Shown one piece after another: positions 1 through 10,744 of a stretch of 10,744 bases of DNA. Position 1 is the stretch's first letter, and each line of letters opens with the position of its first letter. Source of the stretch: a virus; the UHGV virus genome UHGV-1278612. One strand, given 5' to 3'. The notes beneath the pieces are model-generated. The model was given only the letters and a program-made list of their open reading frames with translations. It had not been told where the DNA came from and did no database searches. Position numbers and translations under genes: made by a program.

Positions 1-40
1 GAGCGCCACGGACAGTATGTCGCAGGTTAAAAGTGCAGCC
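1..40 (+). repeat. Left arm of 40-bp exact inverted repeat (reverse complement of 205-244); carries a sense-strand copy of an H segment
   Basis: Window 1-40 is the exact reverse complement of 205-244, checked base by base. Positions 41-44 continue the match with one mismatch. Frame 2 of the plus strand (2-40) reads SATDSMSQVKSAA, the same peptide encoded on the minus strand at 206-244. Confidence 0.9.
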
Positions 41-2169
41 CCGCCAATGGCGCTGCCGATACTCCCGACAATCCCCACCATTGCCTGCTTAAGCAGAATT
101 TCTGTCATCATGGACAGCACGGATCGGGTGAAGCTGCGCCAGTTTTGTTCACTGCCGGTCAGCATCGCCGCCATATTCTGTGCAATACCATCAAAGGTCT
201 GCGTGGCTGCACTTTTAACCTGCGACATACTGTCCGTGGCGCTCTCTTCCCACTCACTCCAGCCTGACTTGAGGCCTGCCATCCAGCTCCCGCGAAGCTG
301 GTCTTCAGCTGCCCAGGTCTTTTTCTGCTCTGACATGACGTTATTCAGCGCCAGCGGATTATCGCCATACTGTTCCTTCAGACGCTGTTCCGTGGCGTCC
401 CGCGCTGCCTGCCGGTCAGTCAGCCCCCGGTTTTTCGCATCAATGGCTGCCCGTTTTGCCCGTTGTTGCTGTGCGAATTTATCCGCCTGCTGCGCCAGCG
501 CATTCAGGTGCTCCTGATACGTGACCTTATCGCCAAGTGCAGCCAGCTGGCGTTTGTACTCCAGCGTCTCGTCTTTATGCGCCAGCAGGGATTTCTCCTG
601 TGCGGACAGCTGGCGACGTTGTGCCGCCTCCTCCAGTACCGCGAACTGACTTTCTGCCTTCCACAAATCCCGGCGCTGCTGGCTGATTTTCTCATTCGCT
701 CCGGCATGCTTCTCCAGTGTCCGGAGTTCTGCCTGAAGCGTCAGCAGGGCAGCATGAGCACTGTCTTCCTGACGATCGCCCGCAGACACCTTCACGCCGG
801 ACTGTTTCGGCTTTTTCAGCGTCGCTTCATAATCCTTTTTCGCCGCCGCCATCAGCGTGTTGTAATCTGCCTGCAGGATTTTCCCGTCTTTCAGTGCCTT
901 GTTCAGTTCTTCCTGACGGGCGGTATATTTCTCCAGCGGCGTCTGCAGCCGTTCGTAAGCCTTCTGCGCCTCTTCGGTATATTTCAGCCGTGACGCTTCG
1001 GTATCGCTCTGCTGCTGCGCATTTTTGTCCTGTTGACTCTGCTGTTCAGCCTTCTTTCGGGCGGCTTCAAGCGCAAGACGGGCCTTTTCACGATCATCCC
1101 AGTAACGCGCCCGCGCTTCATCGTTAACAAAATAATCATCCTTGCGCAGATTCCAGATGTCGTCCGCTTTCTTAAACGCAGCCTCTGCCTTAATCAGCAT
1201 CTCCTGAGCGGTATCAGGACGACCAATATCCAGCACCGCATCCCACATGGATTTGAATGCCCGTGCTGTCCTGTCTGCCCAGGTTTCCAGCGTGCCCATG
1301 TTCTCTTTCAGGCGTCGGGTCTGGTCATCAAACCCTTTCGTTGCGGCCTCGTTCGCCGCCTGCAATGCCCCGGCTTCATCGCCGGAACGCTGCAACTGAG
1401 CAACATACGCAATCTGCTCCGCCGTCACGTTATGGAACTGGCGCGCCATCGCCGTCAGCCCCGACGTCGGGTCAGTGGTCAGCTTCCCGAAGGCTTCAGC
1501 GACCTTGTCCACCTCCACACCGGATGCAGAGGAGAAACGCGCCACACTCTGGCTGATGGACGCAATCTGAGCCTCACCGCTTACCCCCGCCTTAACCAGT
1601 GCACTGAGTGACTCGCTGGTCTGGTTAAACGTCAGCCCTGCAGCCTGCCCGGCTCTGGACAGGACCAGCATACGATCTGCCGTCAGTCCCGCCTGATTAC
1701 CGGAAAGGACCAGCGTTTTGTTGAAATCGGACAGGGTTGAGTTACCCTGATACCAGGCATACGCCAGCGCACCGGTCGCCACCGCCAGCGAGGTGGCCCC
1801 GACCATCGGCAGGGTGATCGCACCGGCAAGCCCCCGGAACATGGGGATCATCCCGCCGAAGGAGTCCTTAACCTGACCACCCTGTTGCAGCAGGATCAGC
1901 CACGGGCTTTGCCCGCCTGCAAGCTGCGTGGCCACGTCGGTGAACTGTGCAGGCAGCATACGCATGGCGGCTTTATACTGCCCGACGGAAATCCCCGCTT
2001 TCTGTGCAGCCAGCGCCTGTCGGCTCAGCGACTGTTCAACGACTGCCGCTGTTTTTTTCGCATCACTTTCCGTACCGGAAAAATGACGCCTGACTCTGGC
2101 CATCTGCTCGTCAAATCTGGCCGCATCCAGACTTAAATCAACGACCAGATCGCCTACCGGTTCAGCCAT
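41..2169 (-). CDS. H: Tail tape measure protein gpH, first ~709 codons; 3' end disrupted at the 40/41 junction
   Basis: ATG at 2169-2167 overlaps the T stop (2164-2162). The translation begins MAEPVGDLVVDLSLDAARFDEQMA, as in lambda H. No complete minus-strand ORF is listed in this frame, so the frame stays open to the window edge. Beyond position 41 it reads into the inverted-repeat copy, not the expected H continuation. Confidence 0.85.
205..244 (-). repeat. Right arm of 40-bp inverted repeat, lying inside the minus-strand H coding sequence
   Basis: Reverse complement of 1-40. The arms are separated by a 164-bp spacer (41-204). Confidence 0.9.
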
Positions 2170-2596
2170 ACCGGACTCCTCCTGCGATCCCTTCTGATAC
2201 TGTCATCAGCATTACGTCATCCTCCGTCATGCCCGCCATATCCGGGGAAGCGGGGATAACTTCATTTCCGTCCGGGTCAAAGCGGACGCCTCCGGTAAGC
2301 CCTGCCGCTTTCTGCATCAGCACATCATCTTCAGGCTCTTCGTCATCCTCACGCCGGTTCAGCAAACTGAAATCCAGCGGATGCATATCCGGATCGCTGA
2401 AAAACAGGCTGAGCACAGTGTACGTCAGCCCGGAAAAGTGCATATCCAGCAGAACATCATGAAAATAATGGGTACTGTAAAAGCGGTGCCAGTCGGCATA
2501 CTCCGTGGATGACATCCCGGCAAGCATGGCGCGCCAGTCAGGTCGCCCCATCTCTCGCGCCAGTTTCAGGGCAAAACTCAGCTCACCGTCGAACAC
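2162..2596 (-). CDS. T: T segment of the tail assembly chaperone, expressed only as the G-T fusion via -1 frameshift
   Basis: ORF 2162-2596 (translation VFDGELSFALKLAREMGRPDW...) sits in the -1 frame relative to G and overlaps the G 3' end. It has no independent ATG or RBS and begins at the slippery heptamer. Confidence 0.85.
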   Translation of the reverse strand: MFDGELSFALKLAREMGRPDWRAMLAGMSSTEYADWHRFYSTHYFHDVLLDMHFSGLTYTVLSLFFSDPDMHPLDFSLLNRREDDEEPEDDVLMQKAAGLTGGVRFDPDGNEVIPASPDMAGMTEDDVMLMTVSEGIAGGVRYG

Positions 2597-3000
2597 TTTC
2601 CCGCAGAAACAGGCTCTGCAGGCCCGGCGTCCTCTGTCTGGTCAGGGGCATCATTCACCACAAACTCATACATTCCGGACAGCCGGTACACCACGTTTTC
2701 AGCATGAGAAATTGCCTCTGTAGGCCAGGTGGTAAGCACTTCCTGCTCAATCTGTTTAACGGCTTCATTCATGGACGGCATCTGCGTCTTCTTCGGATGG
2801 TTATGCCACAGGGACATCGCCACCACAAAAGCGCCGGTTCTGATGGCGTCTTCCACAGTAAACTTCCGGTTGCTGTCTGACTCCGCCTGTTCTGCCTGCC
2901 GTTTCATCAGGGCGAGATGCTCAATACGCTGTAGGGCTGACAGTTCAGAAAGCGTGACGGTCACGCCGTTATGTTCAAATGATTCGGTTTTCAGGAACAT
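2578..3000 (-). CDS. G: Tail assembly chaperone gpG
   Basis: 140-aa ORF MFLKTESFEHNGVTVTLSELSALQRIEHLALMKRQAEQAE...AGKCSTVS, ATG at 3000-2998. Matches lambda gpG in length and sequence; position between V and T. Confidence 0.92.
   Translation of the reverse strand: MFLKTESFEHNGVTVTLSELSALQRIEHLALMKRQAEQAESDSNRKFTVEDAIRTGAFVVAMSLWHNHPKKTQMPSMNEAVKQIEQEVLTTWPTEAISHAENVVYRLSGMYEFVVNDAPDQTEDAGPAEPVSAGKCSTVS
2596..2602 (-). other. Programmed -1 ribosomal frameshift slippery heptamer GGGAAAG (G to G-T)
   Basis: Plus-strand ctttccc at 2596-2602 is GGGAAAG on the coding strand. In the G frame it reads GCG GGA AAG (A G K), 8 codons before the G stop, and the T frame opens there. Confidence 0.85.
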
Positions 3001-3015
3001 CGCTGACTCTCCGGA

Positions 3016-3756
3016 TTAACTGGCGGTGACGGTGATTTCTGCAACCGCAGCAAACTCACCATTACCGGATACGACCGGAATGTTGACCTTGCCTGCAGCA
3101 ACGCCGTTCACGGTGATGGTCATACCACTGACCGACACGGTGGCTTTTGTTTTATCCGCAGACACCGCACGGAAGCTCTTGTCGGTTGCGCCTTCCGGCT
3201 GGAATGCCACGGTCAGCGTGGTGCTCTGCCCTTTCACTACGGAAGCACTGGCTGGCGTTACCGTCATGCCGGTGGCCGCCGTCACCGTGCTGCGATCTTC
3301 TGCCATCGACGGGCGTCCCACATTGGTGACCTTCACCGTGCGGGTAATCACTTCCTTCGCCGTCACCGCCTTACCGATACTGCTGACCCAGCCACGGAAC
3401 ACATCGACCGTGCCGTTCGGGAAGCGGATTTTATAGGCACGGGTATCACCTTCATTAAACCACGCCAGCAGCGCCTGCTGCCCCTGCTCTCCGGGCATCC
3501 ACGCCAGCGTGAAGCTGGTATCTCCGGCTGACTTCTGCCCCTGTCCGGTCGCGGTCCAGTCCGCATCTTCATCATCGAGATAACTGTCGTCATAGGACTC
3601 AGCGGTCAGCTCGCCGGGCGTCAGGTCTTTAACTTTAGCCAGACGCGACCAGTCAACGTCTGAAAGCGGGTTCGCATAAGGGTCACCGTTCCCCTTATAA
3701 ACCCACAGTGTGGTCCCGGCACCTTTCACCGGCATTGTTGGATTTGGTACAGGCAT
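3016..3756 (-). CDS. V: Major tail tube protein gpV
   Basis: ORF 3016-3786 trimmed to the internal ATG at 3756-3754, giving [22 protein letters not shown]... (246 aa). This start lies 7 nt after the U stop and matches the lambda gpV N-terminus. Confidence 0.9.
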
Positions 3757-3763
3757 AGCGTCC

Positions 3764-4159
3764 TCACATTTCATAGGTAATGACATAAGTCAGATCGGCT
3801 GAACTCCACAGGCCCGCATCATCGTCGCGCCGGTAGTCATAGCCACTGGCCACCATACTGGTGATCAAATCTGACAGTGCCGGGATATCGCTCATCACCG
3901 GATAAATCCGGGACTCCATCCACGAATCCAGCTCTGAATCCGGCACCTGAGCAGGCAGGAAAACTTCAATATGCAGCTCCGCCTGCCAGGTATCGCTGTC
4001 CAGCTCTTCGCCCGTGTATTCAGCGCCGGTGAGATAAACGGCAATTGCCGGAAAATCCGCCTCATCAAAAACAGCGGGGCGACCATCAAAAAGCGTCGCC
4101 CCGGTGTCATGCTTCTCCAGTGCATCCAGTACGGCTGCACGGAGTTCAGTATGTTTCAT
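3764..4159 (-). CDS. U: Tail tube terminator protein gpU
   Basis: 131-aa [31 protein letters not shown]... Its ATG at 4159-4157 overlaps the Z stop TGA (4158-4156) in an ATGA arrangement. Confidence 0.92.
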
Positions 4160-4734
4160 CGCTTTATTACCATTCTCAGTTGATGCTGCAGCGCATAGCC
4201 CAGCTCTTTCGGAAGACGTTCACGCCGTATCCGTTCAATATTCTGTTTAAACGCCGTGGTAAGCGGCACCGCCATCGGGATTTTCACCACATCAATGGGG
4301 TAACGGTTTTTCCCGGCCACACGCTGCATGACATGCCACCGCCCATTTTTCAGTTGCTGAATAAACGCGCCGGGAATACGACGGTTACCCACCACAAGCA
4401 CGCTGCCGCCACCTTTCAGGGATGAACGCTGCCCCTTTTTACGACGCCTGCGGCGGGACAGGACAACCCGCGCATTACCCAGCTTGATTACGGGCAAATC
4501 CCCCCGGTTAACTTTGATTCTGGCCTGCGGATTTTTGACCGTGGCCCTTTTCAGCCTGGCCCTTTCCTTTACCAGTTTCCGGCGTACCTTTGTCTCACGG
4601 GCAACCTGTGACGCAGACTGCGATATCACGGATGAAGCAACGCGGTTAATGGCCATTGCGGCGGCACCAGGCACCGCCGTTTTGCTGATACGGCTGAGGT
4701 TTTCAACGGCCTGCTCAAGACCTTTTATGGCCAT
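4156..4734 (-). CDS. Z: Tail completion protein gpZ
   Basis: 192-aa ORF MAIKGLEQAVENLSRISKTAVPGAAAMAINRVASS..., ATG at 4734-4732. Same length as lambda gpZ. Confidence 0.92.
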   Translation of the reverse strand: MAIKGLEQAVENLSRISKTAVPGAAAMAINRVASSVISQSASQVARETKVRRKLVKERARLKRATVKNPQARIKVNRGDLPVIKLGNARVVLSRRRRRKKGQRSSLKGGGSVLVVGNRRIPGAFIQQLKNGRWHVMQRVAGKNRYPIDVVKIPMAVPLTTAFKQNIERIRRERLPKELGYALQHQLRMVIKR

Positions 4735-4745
4735 ACATCCCCCTT

Positions 4746-5099
4746 TCAGCGGCGACGGTTAACGGCAGGCGGTACGCCCCGCCCAAGCCAGAGATGACAG
4801 CTTCCACCATCATCCGGCGAAACCCGGTCTATCCAGAAGTTTTCCTCACCGATGGTCAGCGTGTCTCCACGCCGCAGCTGCCGCACATCATCAGTCCGGA
4901 CAAACAGGGACGGGCTGGAGCCTTCAACGCGCACGCCCTGTCCGGCATAGCTGATATTTTCAGGGTCATCAAAAACACCACGTATTACTGCGCCGGACTG
5001 CTCACCGGATGTCATGGTGGCTGACGTTCCCATGTACCCGCGTATCGTTTCATCGGCGCGGACAATGGCAGCATCGAACAGGTTATCGAAATCAGCCAC
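4746..5099 (-). CDS. FII: Head-tail joining protein gpFII
   Basis: 117-aa ORF MADFDNLFDAAIVRADETIRGYMGTSATMTSGEQ...VPPAVNRRR. The start codon is GTG (reverse complement of 5097-5099), 11 nt after the FI stop. Confidence 0.9.
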   Translation of the reverse strand: MADFDNLFDAAIVRADETIRGYMGTSATMTSGEQSGAVIRGVFDDPENISYAGQGVRVEGSSPSLFVRTDDVRQLRRGDTLTIGEENFWIDRVSPDDGGSCHLWLGRGVPPAVNRRR

Positions 5100-5110
5100 A
5101 GCGCCTCCCG

Positions 5111-5506
5111 TTATTGCATTCTGGCCAGGCCGCGCTCTGTCATTTCGGCTGCCACACCGGCAGAGACACGAAACGCCGTTCCCGGCAGCACAAATGCCAC
5201 AGGTTCATCCCGCGTGGCGTGAAGTGCATCGGTATGCAGCGTCACCAGTGCCACAACCGTGACCAGAACAGCCGTATCAGTCACGGTATCCGTCTGTGCT
5301 GATACCACCTCATTTTCATGTCCGGTCAGCGCATTTTCCGGGCTGACAGACGTGTCCTGACCGGCTCCGTCATCCTTGTCATCAAGCTCCTCTTCCAGCT
5401 CTGCCACACGGAGCGCCAGTTCTTCTTTCGTCCCCGTCAGGCTGACATCACGGTTCAGTTGCTCACCCAGCGACCGGAGACGGGCAATCAGTTCATCTTT
5501 CGTCAT
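5111..5506 (-). CDS. FI: DNA packaging / head completion protein gpFI
   Basis: ORF 5111-5545 trimmed to the ATG at 5506-5504, which is preceded by GGAGGAG (reverse complement of 5511-5517). Product MTKDELIARLRSLGEQLNRDVSLTGTKEEL...AAEMTERGLARMQ, 131 aa. Confidence 0.88.
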   Translation of the reverse strand: MTKDELIARLRSLGEQLNRDVSLTGTKEELALRVAELEEELDDKDDGAGQDTSVSPENALTGHENEVVSAQTDTVTDTAVLVTVVALVTLHTDALHATRDEPVAFVLPGTAFRVSAGVAAEMTERGLARMQ

Positions 5507-5527
5507 GGACTCCTCCACAGAGAGAAA

Positions 5528-5545
5528 ATGGCCCCGAAGGGCCAT
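5528..5545 (-). terminator. Intercistronic stem-loop between E and FI: 7-bp perfect stem with UUCG tetraloop, then a U/C-rich tract (possible attenuator or RNA-stability element)
   Basis: Coding strand reads TAA-tc-AUGGCCC-UUCG-GGGCCAU-uuucucucu-guggaggagucc-AUG. The perfect palindrome starts 2 nt after the E stop; the SD and FI start follow. Confidence 0.4.
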
Positions 5546-5547
5546 GA

Positions 5548-6573
5548 TTACGCCAGTTGAACGGACACGAACTCATCAGGATCAGCCAGCAGCATCAGCG
5601 GTGCTGACTGAATCATGGTGAACTCACGCGCCGGATCGCCGCTGGTCACCCAGTTTTTCGGGTAGCGGGCAGAAGCGTTAATACCTTCGCGCTGTGCGTC
5701 CGCATCCTGAATGCAGCCATAGGTGCGCAGACCGCGAGCCTGAGTGTTCCCCAGCACCATCGTGTTGTCCGGCAGAAAGTTCTTTTTGACGCCGTTTTCC
5801 ACGTACTGTCCGGAATACACGACGATGGCCACATCGCCATACATCCCCTTATAGGACACCGCTTTGCCCAGGTCTTTCACCGCTGTCTCCAGCTCGGAAT
5901 GAGAGCCGCGACGGGTATCCAGCTTCTCCCTGACGGCTTTGAAGGAACGGAACAGCGCCCAGCCTTTCGGATCAAAAACGATAATATTCACCACACCGCT
6001 GGCGTTCAGCGCGTAGGCTTCGATATCGTCGGTCGGGTCATACGTGGACTTGTCGCGCTTGCTCCACTCCGTGCTGCCGGACTGCGTGATGTTATTCGCT
6101 TCACTGCGACCCATATCCACCTCAACCGGATCGAAGGCTTCACCGGTCATGGTGTATTTGCCCTTAAGCACGGCAGAAACGGCCTGCATCTCTTCGACCT
6201 GAGCAATGGCCAGCTCTTCGTCTCGCATGTTCTGCATGATGATGCGACGGCGGCGGTAAGCCGGGTCCGCCAGATTCTTCGGATCTTCATCCGGCAGGCG
6301 ACGCAGGGTCATCTGCGGATTCACCTCATGCTTGGGCTTGACATATCCCGGTGTAAATTCAGAGGTGGAGCCGCCACGGGAGCGGATAACCTCACCGGAA
6401 ACAATCGGCGAAACGTACAGCGCCATGTTTACCAGTCCCGGAATTTGTGAGAGATAGACTTTCTCCGTGGTGAAGGGATAGCTCTCACGGAAAAAGAGAC
6501 GCAGAAACAGCGGATCAAACTTAAATTTCTGCTCATTTGCCGCCAGCAGTTGGGCGGTTGTGTACATCGACAT
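5548..6573 (-). CDS. E: Major capsid protein gpE
   Basis: 341-aa ORF MSMYTTAQLLAANEQKFKFDPLFLRLFFRESYPFTTEKVYLSQIPGLVNMALYVSP...DPDEFVSVQLA. Matches lambda gpE in length and sequence; ATG at 6573-6571. Confidence 0.95.
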   Translation of the reverse strand: MSMYTTAQLLAANEQKFKFDPLFLRLFFRESYPFTTEKVYLSQIPGLVNMALYVSPIVSGEVIRSRGGSTSEFTPGYVKPKHEVNPQMTLRRLPDEDPKNLADPAYRRRRIIMQNMRDEELAIAQVEEMQAVSAVLKGKYTMTGEAFDPVEVDMGRSEANNITQSGSTEWSKRDKSTYDPTDDIEAYALNASGVVNIIVFDPKGWALFRSFKAVREKLDTRRGSHSELETAVKDLGKAVSYKGMYGDVAIVVYSGQYVENGVKKNFLPDNTMVLGNTQARGLRTYGCIQDADAQREGINASARYPKNWVTSGDPAREFTMIQSAPLMLLADPDEFVSVQLA

Positions 6574-6583
6574 AAAAAATCCC

Positions 6584-6607
6584 GTAAAAAAAGCCGCACA
6601 TGCGGCC
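6584..6607 (-). terminator. Intercistronic hairpin plus U7 tract between D and E (terminator-like; possible partial attenuator or processing/stability element)
   Basis: Coding strand reads ...AAAG-GCCGC-AUGU-GCGGC-UUUUUUU-acgggauuuuuu-AUG(E). A GC-rich 5-6 bp stem is followed directly by seven U (plus-strand A-run 6586-6592). Confidence 0.4.
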
Positions 6608-6627
6608 TTTAGTGATGAAGGGTCAGG

Positions 6628-6960
6628 TTAAACGATGCTGATTGCCGTTCCGGCAAACGCGGTCCGTTTTTTCGTCTCGTCGCTGGCAGCCTCCGGCCAG
6701 AGCACATCCTCATAACGGAACGTGCCGGACTTGTAGAACGTCAGCGTGTTGCTGGTCTGGTCAGCAGCAACCGCAAGAATGCCAACGGCAGCACCGTCGG
6801 TGGTGCCATCCCACGCAACCAGCTTACGGGTGGAGGTGTCCAGCATCAGCGGGGTCATTGCAGGCGCTTTCGCACTCAATCCGCCGGGCGCGGTTGCGGT
6901 ATGAGCCGGGTCACTGTTGCCCAGCGGCTGGTAATGGGTAAAGGTTTCTTTGCTCGTCAT
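6628..6960 (-). CDS. D: Head decoration protein gpD
   Basis: ORF 6628-6966 trimmed to the ATG at 6960-6958, which is preceded by GGGA. Product [43 protein letters not shown]...FAGTAISIV, 110 aa. Confidence 0.93.
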
Positions 6961-6969
6961 AAACATCCC

Positions 6970-7575
6970 TTACACTGGTGTGTTCAGCAAATCGTTAACG
7001 GCATCAGATGCCGGGTTACCTGCAGCCAGCGGTGCCGGTGCCCCCTGCATCAGACGATCCAGCGCAGTGTCACTGCGCGCCTGTGCACTCTGTGGTGCTG
7101 CGGCCAGAATGCGGCGGGCCGTTTCCACGGTCATACCGGGGGTTTCGGCCAGCACGCGGGCCTGTTCTTCGCGTCCGTGAGCCTCCTCACAGTTGAGGAT
7201 CCCCATAATGCGGCTGTTTTCTGCCGCAACCGCAGCGGTGATCTGCGCGTTCACGTCCGGCTGCGCCGCGCTGGCGTTTTCGCCCTCCGTCGCTGGCACC
7301 ACGTCAGTAACGTCAGCCTGCGAAGCAGTGGCTGAAACAGTTGTTGATTGAGTCTCTTTGGTCATTCGCCCTCCTGAGAGACGGGATTTACGTGCATCCA
7401 GTGCATCACGCATAACGGTGATCGCATCGGTGCTGTTGACAAGTTCATCAGCCAGTCCGGCATCAATGGCCTCCTGACCGCTGTACACTGCAGCCTCGGT
7501 ATCCAGCACAGCCTGCACGGACAGGCCGATATATGCCGACACCTTCTGCGCAAACATCTGGCGGGTTGCATCCAT
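6970..7575 (-). CDS. Nu3: Scaffolding protein gpNu3, nested in frame within the 3' part of C
   Basis: In-frame ATG at 7575-7573 with GGGAGA about 14 nt upstream on the coding strand. Product MDATRQMFAQKVSAYIGLSVQ..., sharing the C stop. Confidence 0.75.
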   Translation of the reverse strand: MDATRQMFAQKVSAYIGLSVQAVLDTEAAVYSGQEAIDAGLADELVNSTDAITVMRDALDARKSRLSGGRMTKETQSTTVSATASQADVTDVVPATEGENASAAQPDVNAQITAAVAAENSRIMGILNCEEAHGREEQARVLAETPGMTVETARRILAAAPQSAQARSDTALDRLMQGAPAPLAAGNPASDAVNDLLNTPV

Positions 7576-8289
7576 CCGGGACTGCAGTGTCTCCCGGACG
7601 TCATCCGGAAGATGGCTGTAGGGGTTGCCATCCACCTTATGGCTGCCGCTGTAAATCAGCGTGATTTCCACGCCCTGTTTCTCCAGCGCAGCACCGTAAT
7701 TACTGTGAGCCATCATGACGCCGATGGAGCCTGTCCGGGCGGTCTGCGTGACCAGACGCCGGGAGGCGGCGCTGGCAAGCAGCTGCCCTGCACTGCAGTT
7801 CATGTCATTGGCCAGCGCCCATACCGGCTTTATGTCACGCACACGGGCGATGATGTCAGCGCAGTCAAATGCCCCTGCCACCATCCCGCCTGGCGTATCC
7901 ATATCGAGCAGAATGCCGTCCACCATCGGGTCGCTGGCAGCCTGTTGCAGACGGGCGATAATGCCGTTGTAACCGGTCATCCCCGAATACGGCTGCAGCG
8001 CTCGCGTCCGGCTGACCAGCGTACCGGACACCGGCAGCACGGCGATGCCGTTCATGACCTGATAATTGCGGGCCTGTCGTGGTCCGTCATCATCACCGGA
8101 TAACGCCAGCGCCGCGGGTGCCTCTCCGGCAGTCAGGCTGTCGCCGGACACCGCATCCGTCAGGCGACTGATCCCAAGCTGGCCTGCAAGCGCACAAAAG
8201 AAAACCCGCGCATAGGCGGGTTCAAGCATCAGCGGCTCATTAAAAGCCATGCTGGCAATATGCGGGAGATTACGCAGCTCTGCTGTCAC
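6970..8289 (-). CDS. C: Head maturation protease / scaffold gpC (ClpP/SppA-like serine protease)
   Basis: ORF 6970-8424 trimmed to the GTG at 8289-8287, giving VTAELRNLPHIASMAFNEPLMLEPAYARVFF...AVNDLLNTPV (439 codons). The start lies inside the 3' end of B, a 20-nt overlap. Confidence 0.88.
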   Translation of the reverse strand: MTAELRNLPHIASMAFNEPLMLEPAYARVFFCALAGQLGISRLTDAVSGDSLTAGEAPAALALSGDDDGPRQARNYQVMNGIAVLPVSGTLVSRTRALQPYSGMTGYNGIIARLQQAASDPMVDGILLDMDTPGGMVAGAFDCADIIARVRDIKPVWALANDMNCSAGQLLASAASRRLVTQTARTGSIGVMMAHSNYGAALEKQGVEITLIYSGSHKVDGNPYSHLPDDVRETLQSRMDATRQMFAQKVSAYIGLSVQAVLDTEAAVYSGQEAIDAGLADELVNSTDAITVMRDALDARKSRLSGGRMTKETQSTTVSATASQADVTDVVPATEGENASAAQPDVNAQITAAVAAENSRIMGILNCEEAHGREEQARVLAETPGMTVETARRILAAAPQSAQARSDTALDRLMQGAPAPLAAGNPASDAVNDLLNTPV

Positions 8290-9034
8290 TCTTCTCCTCC
8301 TCTGTTGATTGTCGCAGCCCGGATTCAAATGCCGCAGCCGCCCAGGCGGGCGGTTTAAGACCGGCTGCACGGCGCTCCATCGTTTCACGGACCTGCTGGG
8401 CAAAAATTTCCTGATAGTCGTCACCGCGTTTTGCGCACTCTTTCTCGTAGGTACTCAGTCCGGCTTCTATCAGCATCACCGCTTCCTGTACTTCTTTCAG
8501 ACCATCGATGGCCATACGACCGGAGCCTATCCAGTCGCAGTTCCCCCAGGCACTGCGGGCTTCCTGAAAACTGAAGCGCGCTTTTGAAGGTAACGTCACC
8601 ACGCGGCGGGCGATGGCCTCTTCCAGCCAGCACAGAAACATCTGGCTCGCCTGACGGGATGCGACGAATTTTCGCCGCCCCATAAAGTACGCCCACGACT
8701 CGTTCGCACTGGCCCGTGCCGTGGAGTAGCTCATCTGGGCGTAATTCCGGGAAAGCTGCTCATACGAGACACCCAGCCCGGCAGCGATATACCGCAGCAG
8801 TGACTGCTCAAACACGGAGTAGCCGTTATCCGTGTCCTGAGCCGTCTGCAGGTTCAGTGAGTCCCCCGGCATCAGGTGCGGCACTTTTGCGCCTCCCAGA
8901 CGGACCGGTGCTGCGGCGTAATACGCGGCAATTTCACCAATCCAGCCGGTCAGCTTGTCCCGCTGCTCCTGACTGTTCGCGCCCAGAATAAAATCCATCG
9001 CTGACTGCGTATCCAGCTCACTCTCAATGGTGGC
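8270..9034 (-). pseudogene. B: Portal protein gpB, 3' fragment (about codons 280-533); no native start, fused to antisense A sequence
   Basis: ORF 8270-9058 reads MFRLRGMLA followed by TIESELDTQSAMDFILGANSQEQRDKLTGWIGEIAAYYAAAPVRLGG...EEEKSDSRAA. The first 9 residues are antisense of the A fragment; the rest is the B C-terminus. The B N-terminal half is absent from this strand. Confidence 0.85.
8915..9034 (-). repeat. 120-bp inverted duplicate of 10498-10617 (B codons ~280-319)
   Basis: Reverse complement of 8915-9034 equals plus-strand 10498-10617; both ends checked base by base. Both copies encode TIESELDTQSAMDFILGANSQEQRDKLTGWIGEIAAYYA. Confidence 0.88.
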
Positions 9035-9664
<630 letters not shown>

Positions 9665-10135
9665 AAACGCCCACCATTCCCACCCTTCTGGGGCCGGACG
9701 GCATGACATCGCTGCGCGAATATGCCGGTTATCACGGCGGTGGCAGCGGATTTGGAGGGCAGTTGCGGTCGTGGAACCCACCGGGTGAAAGTGTGGATGC
9801 AGCCCTGTTGCCCAACTTTACCCGTGGCAATGCCCGCGCAGACGATCTGGTACGCAATAACGGCTATGCCGCCAACGCCATCCAGCTGCATCAGGATCAT
9901 ATCGTCGGGTCTTTTTTCCGGCTCAGTCATCGCCCAAGCTGGCGCTATCTGGGCATCGGGGAGGAAGAAGCCCGTGCCTTTTCCCGCGAGGTTGAAGCGG
10001 CATGGAAAGAGTTTGCCGAGGATGACTGCTGCTGCATTGACGTTGAGCGAAAACGCACGTTTACCATGATGATTCGGGAAGGTGTGGCCATGCACGCCTT
10101 TAACGGTGAACTGTTCGTTCAGGCCACCTGGGATA

Positions 10136-10262
10136 CCAGTCCGTCGCGGCTTTTCCGGACACAGTTCCGGATGGTCAGCCCGAAGCGCATCAGCAACCCG
10201 AACAATACCGGTGACAGCCGGAACTGCCGTGCCGGTGTGCAGATTAATGACAGCGGTGCGGC
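10136..10262 (+). repeat. Direct repeat copy 1 (source copy within B, codons ~159-201)
   Basis: 10136-10262 is identical to 10618-10744 at a 482-bp offset, checked at both ends. Confidence 0.88.
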
Positions 10263-10497
10263 GCTGGGATATTACGTCAGCGAGGACGGGTATCCTGGCT
10301 GGATGCCGCAGAAATGGACATGGATACCCCGTGAATTACCCGGCGGGCGCGCCTCGTTCATTCACGTTTTTGAACCCGTGGAGGACGGGCAGACCCGCGG
10401 TGCAAATGTGTTTTACAGCGTGATGGAGCAGATGAAGATGCTCGACACGCTGCAGAACACGCAGCTGCAGAGCGCCATTGTGAAGGCAATGTATGCC

Positions 10498-10617
10498 GCC
10501 ACCATTGAGAGTGAGCTGGATACGCAGTCAGCGATGGATTTTATTCTGGGCGCGAACAGTCAGGAGCAGCGGGACAAGCTGACCGGCTGGATTGGTGAAA
10601 TTGCCGCGTATTACGCC
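10498..10617 (+). repeat. 120-bp segment of B duplicated in inverted orientation at 8915-9034
   Basis: See feature 8915-9034. The plus-strand copy is flanked by correct B sequence on its 5' side only. Confidence 0.88.
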
Positions 10618-10744
10618 CCAGTCCGTCGCGGCTTTTCCGGACACAGTTCCGGATGGTCAGCCCGAAGCGCATCAGCAACCCGAACAATACCGGTGACAGC
10701 CGGAACTGCCGTGCCGGTGTGCAGATTAATGACAGCGGTGCGGC
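10618..10744 (+). repeat. Direct repeat copy 2, at least 127 bp, running off the window end
   Basis: ccagtccgtcgcggcttttccggacacag...gacagcggtgcggc repeats 10136-10262 exactly and begins right after tattacgcc (B codon 319). Confidence 0.88.

Follow-up and report, generated by a model that had tools for sequence, protein, structure and literature searches.

The portal gene at the right end of the viral genome UHGV-1278612 is interrupted by an exact direct repeat of 127 nt, which most probably marks the point at which a de Bruijn assembler working with a word length of k = 127 came to a stop. The stretch of DNA that we analysed (10,744 nt in full, hereafter referred to as the window) would accordingly represent an ordinary lambda-like prophage that was scrambled via chimeric DNA formed in vitro, and we assign a probability of roughly 0.6 to this combined reading. 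It is based on the composition of the window, which can be traced to one prophage type, the behaviour of the terminal repeat at different word lengths, the properties of the three joins at which the order of the prophage is broken, and the absence of these joins from the collections searched.

Composition of the window

Mapping of the sequence assigned the content of the window to the late region, with the head and tail genes, of a lambda-like prophage of E. coli. As reference locus we used the intact and collinear prophage of E. coli AR_0017 (NZ_CP024886, 897913-923505; hereafter L001), since all four pieces into which the window falls map to this single collinear prophage with 99.85-100% identity. 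L001 is a far closer match to the window than phage lambda (J02459 12675-3673, which aligns to window positions 36-9034 on the minus strand with 97.3% identity) or phage PhiR63_1 (98.1% identity over the same positions 36-9034). The pieces, their genes and the three non-native joins, termed J1, J2 and J3, are listed below with window positions first.

1-40, plus strand: piece 1, a short stretch of the tape-measure gene that forms the left arm of J1 (L001 22198-22237)
40/41: J1, inverted fold-back from L001 22237 (+) to 22401 (-), with a 164-nt spacer, within the tape-measure gene
41-9034, minus strand: piece 2 (L001 22401-13470, 99.96% identity apart from a 60-nt indel), with the genes for tape-measure H (5' part), T/G, V, U, Z, FII, FI, E, D, C and the 3' part of portal B
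5548-6573, minus strand: gene E of the lambda-type late region
6628-6966, minus strand: gene D of the lambda-type late region
8270-9034, minus strand: 3' part of portal gene B of the lambda-type late region, from about codon 280
9029-9034: J2, inverted fold-back from L001 13470 (-) to 12001/12007 (+), with a 1469-nt spacer
9029/9035-10617, plus strand: piece 3 (L001 12001/12007-13589)
up to 9461, plus strand: 3' end of terminase gene A, from about codon 498 onward, within piece 3
9458-9664, plus strand: gene W, within piece 3
9661-10617, plus strand: portal gene B, codons 1-319, within piece 3
10617/10618: J3, direct back-jump from L001 13589 (+) to 13108 (+), blunt, with 0 nt of microhomology
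10618-10744, plus strand: piece 4 (L001 13108-13234, 100% identity)

The other genes of the window are intact and near-identical to those of a functional-looking prophage. The 60-nt indel within piece 2 corresponds to positions 701-760, a part of the tape-measure gene that is present in the window and in lambda-type phages and is missing from the prophages of AR_0017 and CP165483 (L008), which are otherwise 99.96% identical. We considered a fourth junction at this position and rejected it, because the lambda-type phages have the 60 nt and AR_0017 carries a deletion. The tape-measure gene of AR_0017 is annotated as frameshifted.

The terminal repeat and the portal reading frame

A previous sequence-only reading of this DNA had described the end of the window as a direct repeat of 10136-10262, and positions 10618-10744 are indeed an exact copy of this segment in the same orientation (127 of 127 nt identical), with a distance of 482 nt from start to start. 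Chance cannot account for an exact repeat of this length within 10.7 kb. With the start of the portal gene, which is homologous to lambda B, at 9661, codon 319 extends to 10617, and position 10136 falls on the second base of codon 159; the back-jump of 482 bp from the end of codon 319 to base 2 of codon 159, as it had been described before, is therefore confirmed by the coordinates. The second copy, which covers portal codons 159-201 out of phase, extends to the final base of the window, and the B frame reads PVRRGFSGHSSGW... from J3 through to the window end, in agreement with the frame shift that had been noted. The remarks that the junction at 10617/10618 has no flanking microhomology and that it is the third one in 10.7 kb proved accurate as well, as the join is blunt and J1 and J2 precede it.

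Two earlier statements held only in part. The proposal of a complex rearrangement or a mis-assembled repeat was right in that the window is rearranged with respect to the normal prophage, but the mis-assembled repeat is the wrong mechanism, since a single portal gene is present in the normal prophage, which lacks a repeat here, and the sequences that meet at J3 have nothing in common. Likewise, the repeat of at least 127 bp is exact, but this figure does not indicate the size of a duplication, because 127 is the maximum k of SPAdes.

Close to J3 we observed a near-match between positions 10618-10627 (CCAGTCCGTC) and L001 13596-13605 (CCGGTCCGTC), i.e. native sequence located 7-16 nt past the donor break, in which 9 of 10 nucleotides agree at an offset of 6 nt. 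A near-match of this kind occurred in 0.46% of random junction pairs, a value that comes from a post hoc test. A homology-primed switch at CCGGTCCGTC / CCAGTCCGTC was considered and found insufficient, as it would keep a GCAGCA that is missing from the window, and no simple model of template switching accounts for the match. The match could possibly be the trace of a more complex switch, or it could be due to chance.

Word length at the end of the window

We counted the canonical k-mers that recur in the window at many values of k. At k = 127, a single canonical word recurs, which is the terminal 127-mer (10618-10744), and no word recurs at k of 128 or above. At k = 121-126, the terminal repeat recurs, but a contig would extend past the word that it revisits first; at k of 120 or below, the path along the forward piece would run back into the minus-strand piece, read as its reverse complement, at 10498. 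Hence, 127 is the sole value that makes the window a simple de Bruijn path ending at the first revisited node. The window has the features of a contig end at k = 127, in that the repeat is as long as k, no other k-mer is repeated on either strand, and the end of the window is taken as the contig end.

The maximum k of SPAdes is 127, and SPAdes contigs are known to have overlapping sequence at their ends (PMC5481147; PMC4699355). The same value is the last in the k series 33, 55, 77, 99 and 127 of the JGI metagenome workflow (bioRxiv 10.1101/2020.09.30.320929). The window resembles the k-length end overlap of de Bruijn contigs from SPAdes or metaSPAdes in that its repeat is 127 nt long, extends to the last position of the sequence, begins where two incoming paths converge and represents the sole 127-mer that occurs more than once. 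It differs from the textbook case, in which the start of a circular replicon overlaps with its end, since here the end overlaps with an internal node, which gives a 'rho'-shaped path with a cycle of 482 nt. A further difference is that the assembler and its k are deduced for the window, from the sequence alone, and not documented. We estimate that a random cut within the first repeat period would leave exactly 127 nt in about 1 of 480 cases. As the 127 nt follow from a convention of contig output, they carry no information on the size of the duplication, and there may be no sequence beyond position 10744 to be found.

The inverted junctions

The two remaining joins are of the inverted type. 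The arm of J1 (1-40) is an exact inverted copy of 205-244, and the join itself is blunt and lies inside an imperfect inverted repeat of 9 nt, in which 7 of the 9 positions match (CAGCCACGC / CAGCACCGC). J2 connects the portal gene at about codon 280 (minus strand) to terminase gene A at about codon 498 (plus strand) and has a microhomology of 6 nt, GGTGGC, which is common to both sides. Among simulated random joins in the prophage, a microhomology of at least 6 nt was found in 0.2% (P = 0.002 for random inverted joins), and 56% had 0 nt. Downstream of J2, positions 10498-10617 repeat 8915-9034 exactly in inverted orientation, an overlap of 120 nt (L001 13470-13589), which is shorter than 127. 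The order of strands is thus plus (1-40), minus (41-9034) and plus (9035-10617), with a central inverted copy between two inversion junctions of opposite sense.

A probable assembler stop on chimeric DNA

We propose that the window is a contig, or ends at the end of a contig, produced by a de Bruijn assembler with a final k of 127, e.g. SPAdes or metaSPAdes, and that this contig would contain the late region of one lambda-like prophage, read as four pieces with three non-native joins. Some reads would link the portal positions L001 13589 and 13108 on the same strand and thereby create a cycle of 482 nt in the assembly graph, and the node 10136-10262 would be reached both by the native path and via the J3 edge. 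The contig path would enter the cycle, complete one round, cross the J3 edge and halt at the first node that it had already visited, so that 10136-10744 would consist of the 482-nt cycle once plus the closing node. Because the output of an edge includes the terminal node, precisely k = 127 bases are repeated at the end of such a contig. The 'portal' with its shifted frame would consequently be a by-product of the cycle stop and not a variant of the gene.

The shared sequence amounts to 0 nt at J3 and 6 nt at J2. Since a graph needs about k shared nucleotides to create a join without reads, the words across J2 and J3 must have come from reads or from lower-k contigs that were built from reads. 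It follows from the logic of graph assemblers that the junctions must have been physical adjacencies in the sequenced DNA. This DNA would have been chimeric in vitro, probably due to template switching during whole-genome amplification of the phi29/MDA type; fold-back and ligation chimeras that are formed during library preparation represent another potential route. We further presume that the chimeric DNA was locally dominant or provided the sole extension open to the assembler.

An in vitro origin is favoured by three non-native joins in 10.7 kb of otherwise undisturbed sequence with an identity of 99.96% to an intact prophage, by the 100% identity of the duplicated parts, and by the fact that two of the three joins are short-range fold-backs, one of which, J2, has a clear priming microhomology. 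In addition, the left arm of J1 measures 40 nt instead of 127, which points to a dead-end tip with few reads rather than to a well-covered clonal junction. However, several observations are not easily reconciled with this explanation. The contig runs through J2 and J3 unbroken, which suggests that the native adjacencies are rare or absent and would also fit a real rearrangement that dominates the sample. J1 has no perfect microhomology, and J3, as a direct join of less than 10 kb without microhomology, belongs to the rarest class of MDA chimeras (11 of 475; PMC1855051). Moreover, if the window was cut from a longer contig, the length of 127 would be a coincidence.

A survey of chimeras after MDA of a single E. 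coli cell provides a basis for comparison (Lasken & Stockwell 2007, PMC1855051). In that study, inverted chimeras accounted for 85% of the 475 cases, and 337 of these 406 joined segments located less than 10 kb apart; 93.5% of the latter had complementary bases at the junction, and junctions occurred at a rate of about one per 10-22 kb (PMC1855051). Both J1 (164 nt) and J2 (1469 nt) are inverted joins between segments less than 10 kb apart on one molecule, and J3 is a direct join over 481 nt; with at least 2 nt required for complementary bases at the priming site, J2 has 6 nt, and J1 and J3 have 0 each. The window resembles MDA chimeras (PMC1855051) with respect to the inverted orientation of J1 and J2, the 6-nt complementarity at J2 and a similar density of junctions. 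It differs from them in that J3 is direct and without complementarity and J1 is without perfect complementarity, and amplification of the sample is only supposed.

Search for the junctions in other genomes

As queries across the junctions we used asymmetric sequences with 100 nt from one side and 24 nt from the other, which were compared with complete E. coli genomes. The region A-W-B is present in about 3,100 of the 5,426 complete genomes and is collinear every time, and none of the records among these 5,426 genomes crosses J1, J2 or J3. An apparent coverage of J3 in portal genes of the CFSAN018748 type (117 of 124 nt, 94%) turned out to be a gapped chance extension. The highest coverage of the window among 50,697 phage records was 84%, and none of these records bears the junctions. 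Exact 30-mers across J3 and J2 had no match in collections of viral, metagenome and genome contigs, and the exact 30-mer across J1 had none in the viral contig collection. In an exact look-up, the products of the ORFs that span a junction, with lengths of 144 aa (9027-9461), 262 aa (8270-9058) and 256 aa (8270-9040), were not on record.

Alternative explanations

The alternative that survives best, albeit an unlikely one, is a recent in vivo rearrangement in an E. coli prophage or in replicating phage DNA, whose assembly also stopped at the k = 127 node. This rearrangement would be an inverted triplication or tandem inversion duplication (forward, inverted over 8.9 kb, forward), or a hairpin-capped or inverted-dimer intermediate, in each case together with a tandem duplication of 482 bp in the portal gene. 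J1 and J2 fold back in opposite senses at the two ends of one inverted segment (L001 13470-22237), J1 with a spacer of 164 nt and J2 with one of 1469 nt, a geometry that matches the inverted triplications, TIDs and 'dog-bone' intermediates which are formed at short interrupted inverted repeats (PMC4689423). The location of J1 inside a 7/9 inverted repeat and the 6-nt microhomology at J2 are also consistent with such an origin, and a contig that traverses J2 and J3 is what would be expected if the sample was without native adjacencies. On the other hand, the structure is absent from the 5,426 complete E. coli genomes and the other collections searched, and duplicates that are 100% identical, within a sequence 99.96% identical to the intact prophage, would require a very recent event. 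There is no apparent selection for an amplification of phage head and tail genes, and E. coli does not maintain large inverted repeats stably, which also counts against a rearrangement in vivo. Furthermore, a clonal junction at normal depth should leave a J1 left arm of 127 nt, whereas an arm of 40 nt is seen.

The window is comparable to inverted triplications, TIDs and ODIRA 'dog-bone' structures (PMC4689423) in its forward-inverted-forward order, in the location of its junctions at short interrupted inverted repeats or close to them, and in the presence of a spacer at each junction. These structures differ from it in that they are normally found under gene-dosage selection, which is not evident for phage structural genes, and a threefold copy number of the shared segment, with both flanking forward copies running on into native sequence, would be presumed for the window, whose left forward copy is 40 nt long. 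In our comparison, the geometry of the junctions resembles chimeras of the MDA type and TID/ODIRA structures equally. If the contig recorded a real molecule, the late region of a lambdoid prophage could be present in it as an inverted-dimer, hairpin-capped 'dog-bone' or TID-type by-product of phage or prophage replication that is abundant enough to dominate the reads, with a stem corresponding to L001 13470-22237, loops of 164 and 1469 nt and the 482-bp portal duplication, formed by template switching in vivo at short inverted repeats; we consider this specific proposal rather doubtful.

It is improbable that the portal gene of a decaying prophage carries a simple tandem duplication here and that the window was cut 127 nt into the second copy by chance. 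Such an event would account for J3, which is of the tandem type with both copies on the same strand and 482 nt apart from start to start, and E. coli often harbours natural lambdoid remnants whose A and B genes are broken; however, both the length of 127 and the unique recurrence at k = 127 would then be coincidental, two further non-native joins are located in the same 10.7 kb, and the remaining genes are intact and near-identical to those of a functional-looking prophage. Within the 5,426 complete E. coli genomes and the contig collections, J3 was found neither in related genomes nor in independent assemblies, in which a simple tandem duplication should be present.

A mis-assembly of a pre-existing repeat without chimeric DNA, i.e. 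between two related prophages or between strains of a metagenome, is very improbable, since, although many E. coli genomes do carry several lambdoid prophages (median of 2 places per genome, up to 11), switching between copies needs shared words of about k in length, so that the lack of shared sequence at the joins (0 nt at J3, 6 nt at J2) essentially excludes it, and both sides of every junction match one prophage type with at least 99.9% identity as compared to about 98.4% for Qin-type remnants.

Implications

The interrupted portal gene should be treated as an artefact of assembly or library preparation pending read support, and the window contains no new kind of biological element. With the assembler stop on chimeric DNA as the preferred explanation, neither J1, J2 and J3 nor the frame-shifted portal gene are to be taken as prophage biology, gene decay or structural variation without reads. 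The main use of the finding lies in quality control. As a quick general test, one may ask whether a terminal repeat has the length of a standard k and is the sole recurring k-mer of that length; other windows affected by this artefact can be recognised in the same way. Should the junctions be real, a lambdoid prophage would offer natural fold-back or inverted-duplication intermediates; this would be moderately interesting, although the mechanism has already been described.

Rearranged remnants in other prophages

Defective prophages of the Qin type also contain truncated and inverted segments of the terminase and portal genes, in which they resemble the window. Three of them (L003, L005 and L011) carry an inverted A'-W-B-C' block adjoining pin-tfa-stf, with breakpoints at about 9975-10001, and a fourth locus (L006) carries a Nu1-A' fusion with a breakpoint at about 9960-9975. 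They differ from the window in their breakpoints, their partners and their identity of about 98.4%. A remnant of this type was rejected as the source of the forward piece, given an identity of 98.4% in contrast to 99.94% for the intact prophage. The terminase A breakpoints of all four loci lie 11-32 nt upstream of the A-side breakpoint of J2 and have other partners. A breakpoint hot spot near J2 was considered and rejected, because the breakpoints of the remnants differ by these 11-32 nt on alignment; their closeness to J2 is a selection effect, since the loci were fetched with the 140-aa A' ORF, whose start is the first ATG that follows the break. In a further locus (L012, NZ_CP028192.1, E. 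coli CFSAN018748), we observed a 5'-truncated portal gene that is joined to AT-rich non-phage sequence at about 650-680, and the start of this portal gene is located about 15-20 nt from the position of the B-side breakpoint of J2.
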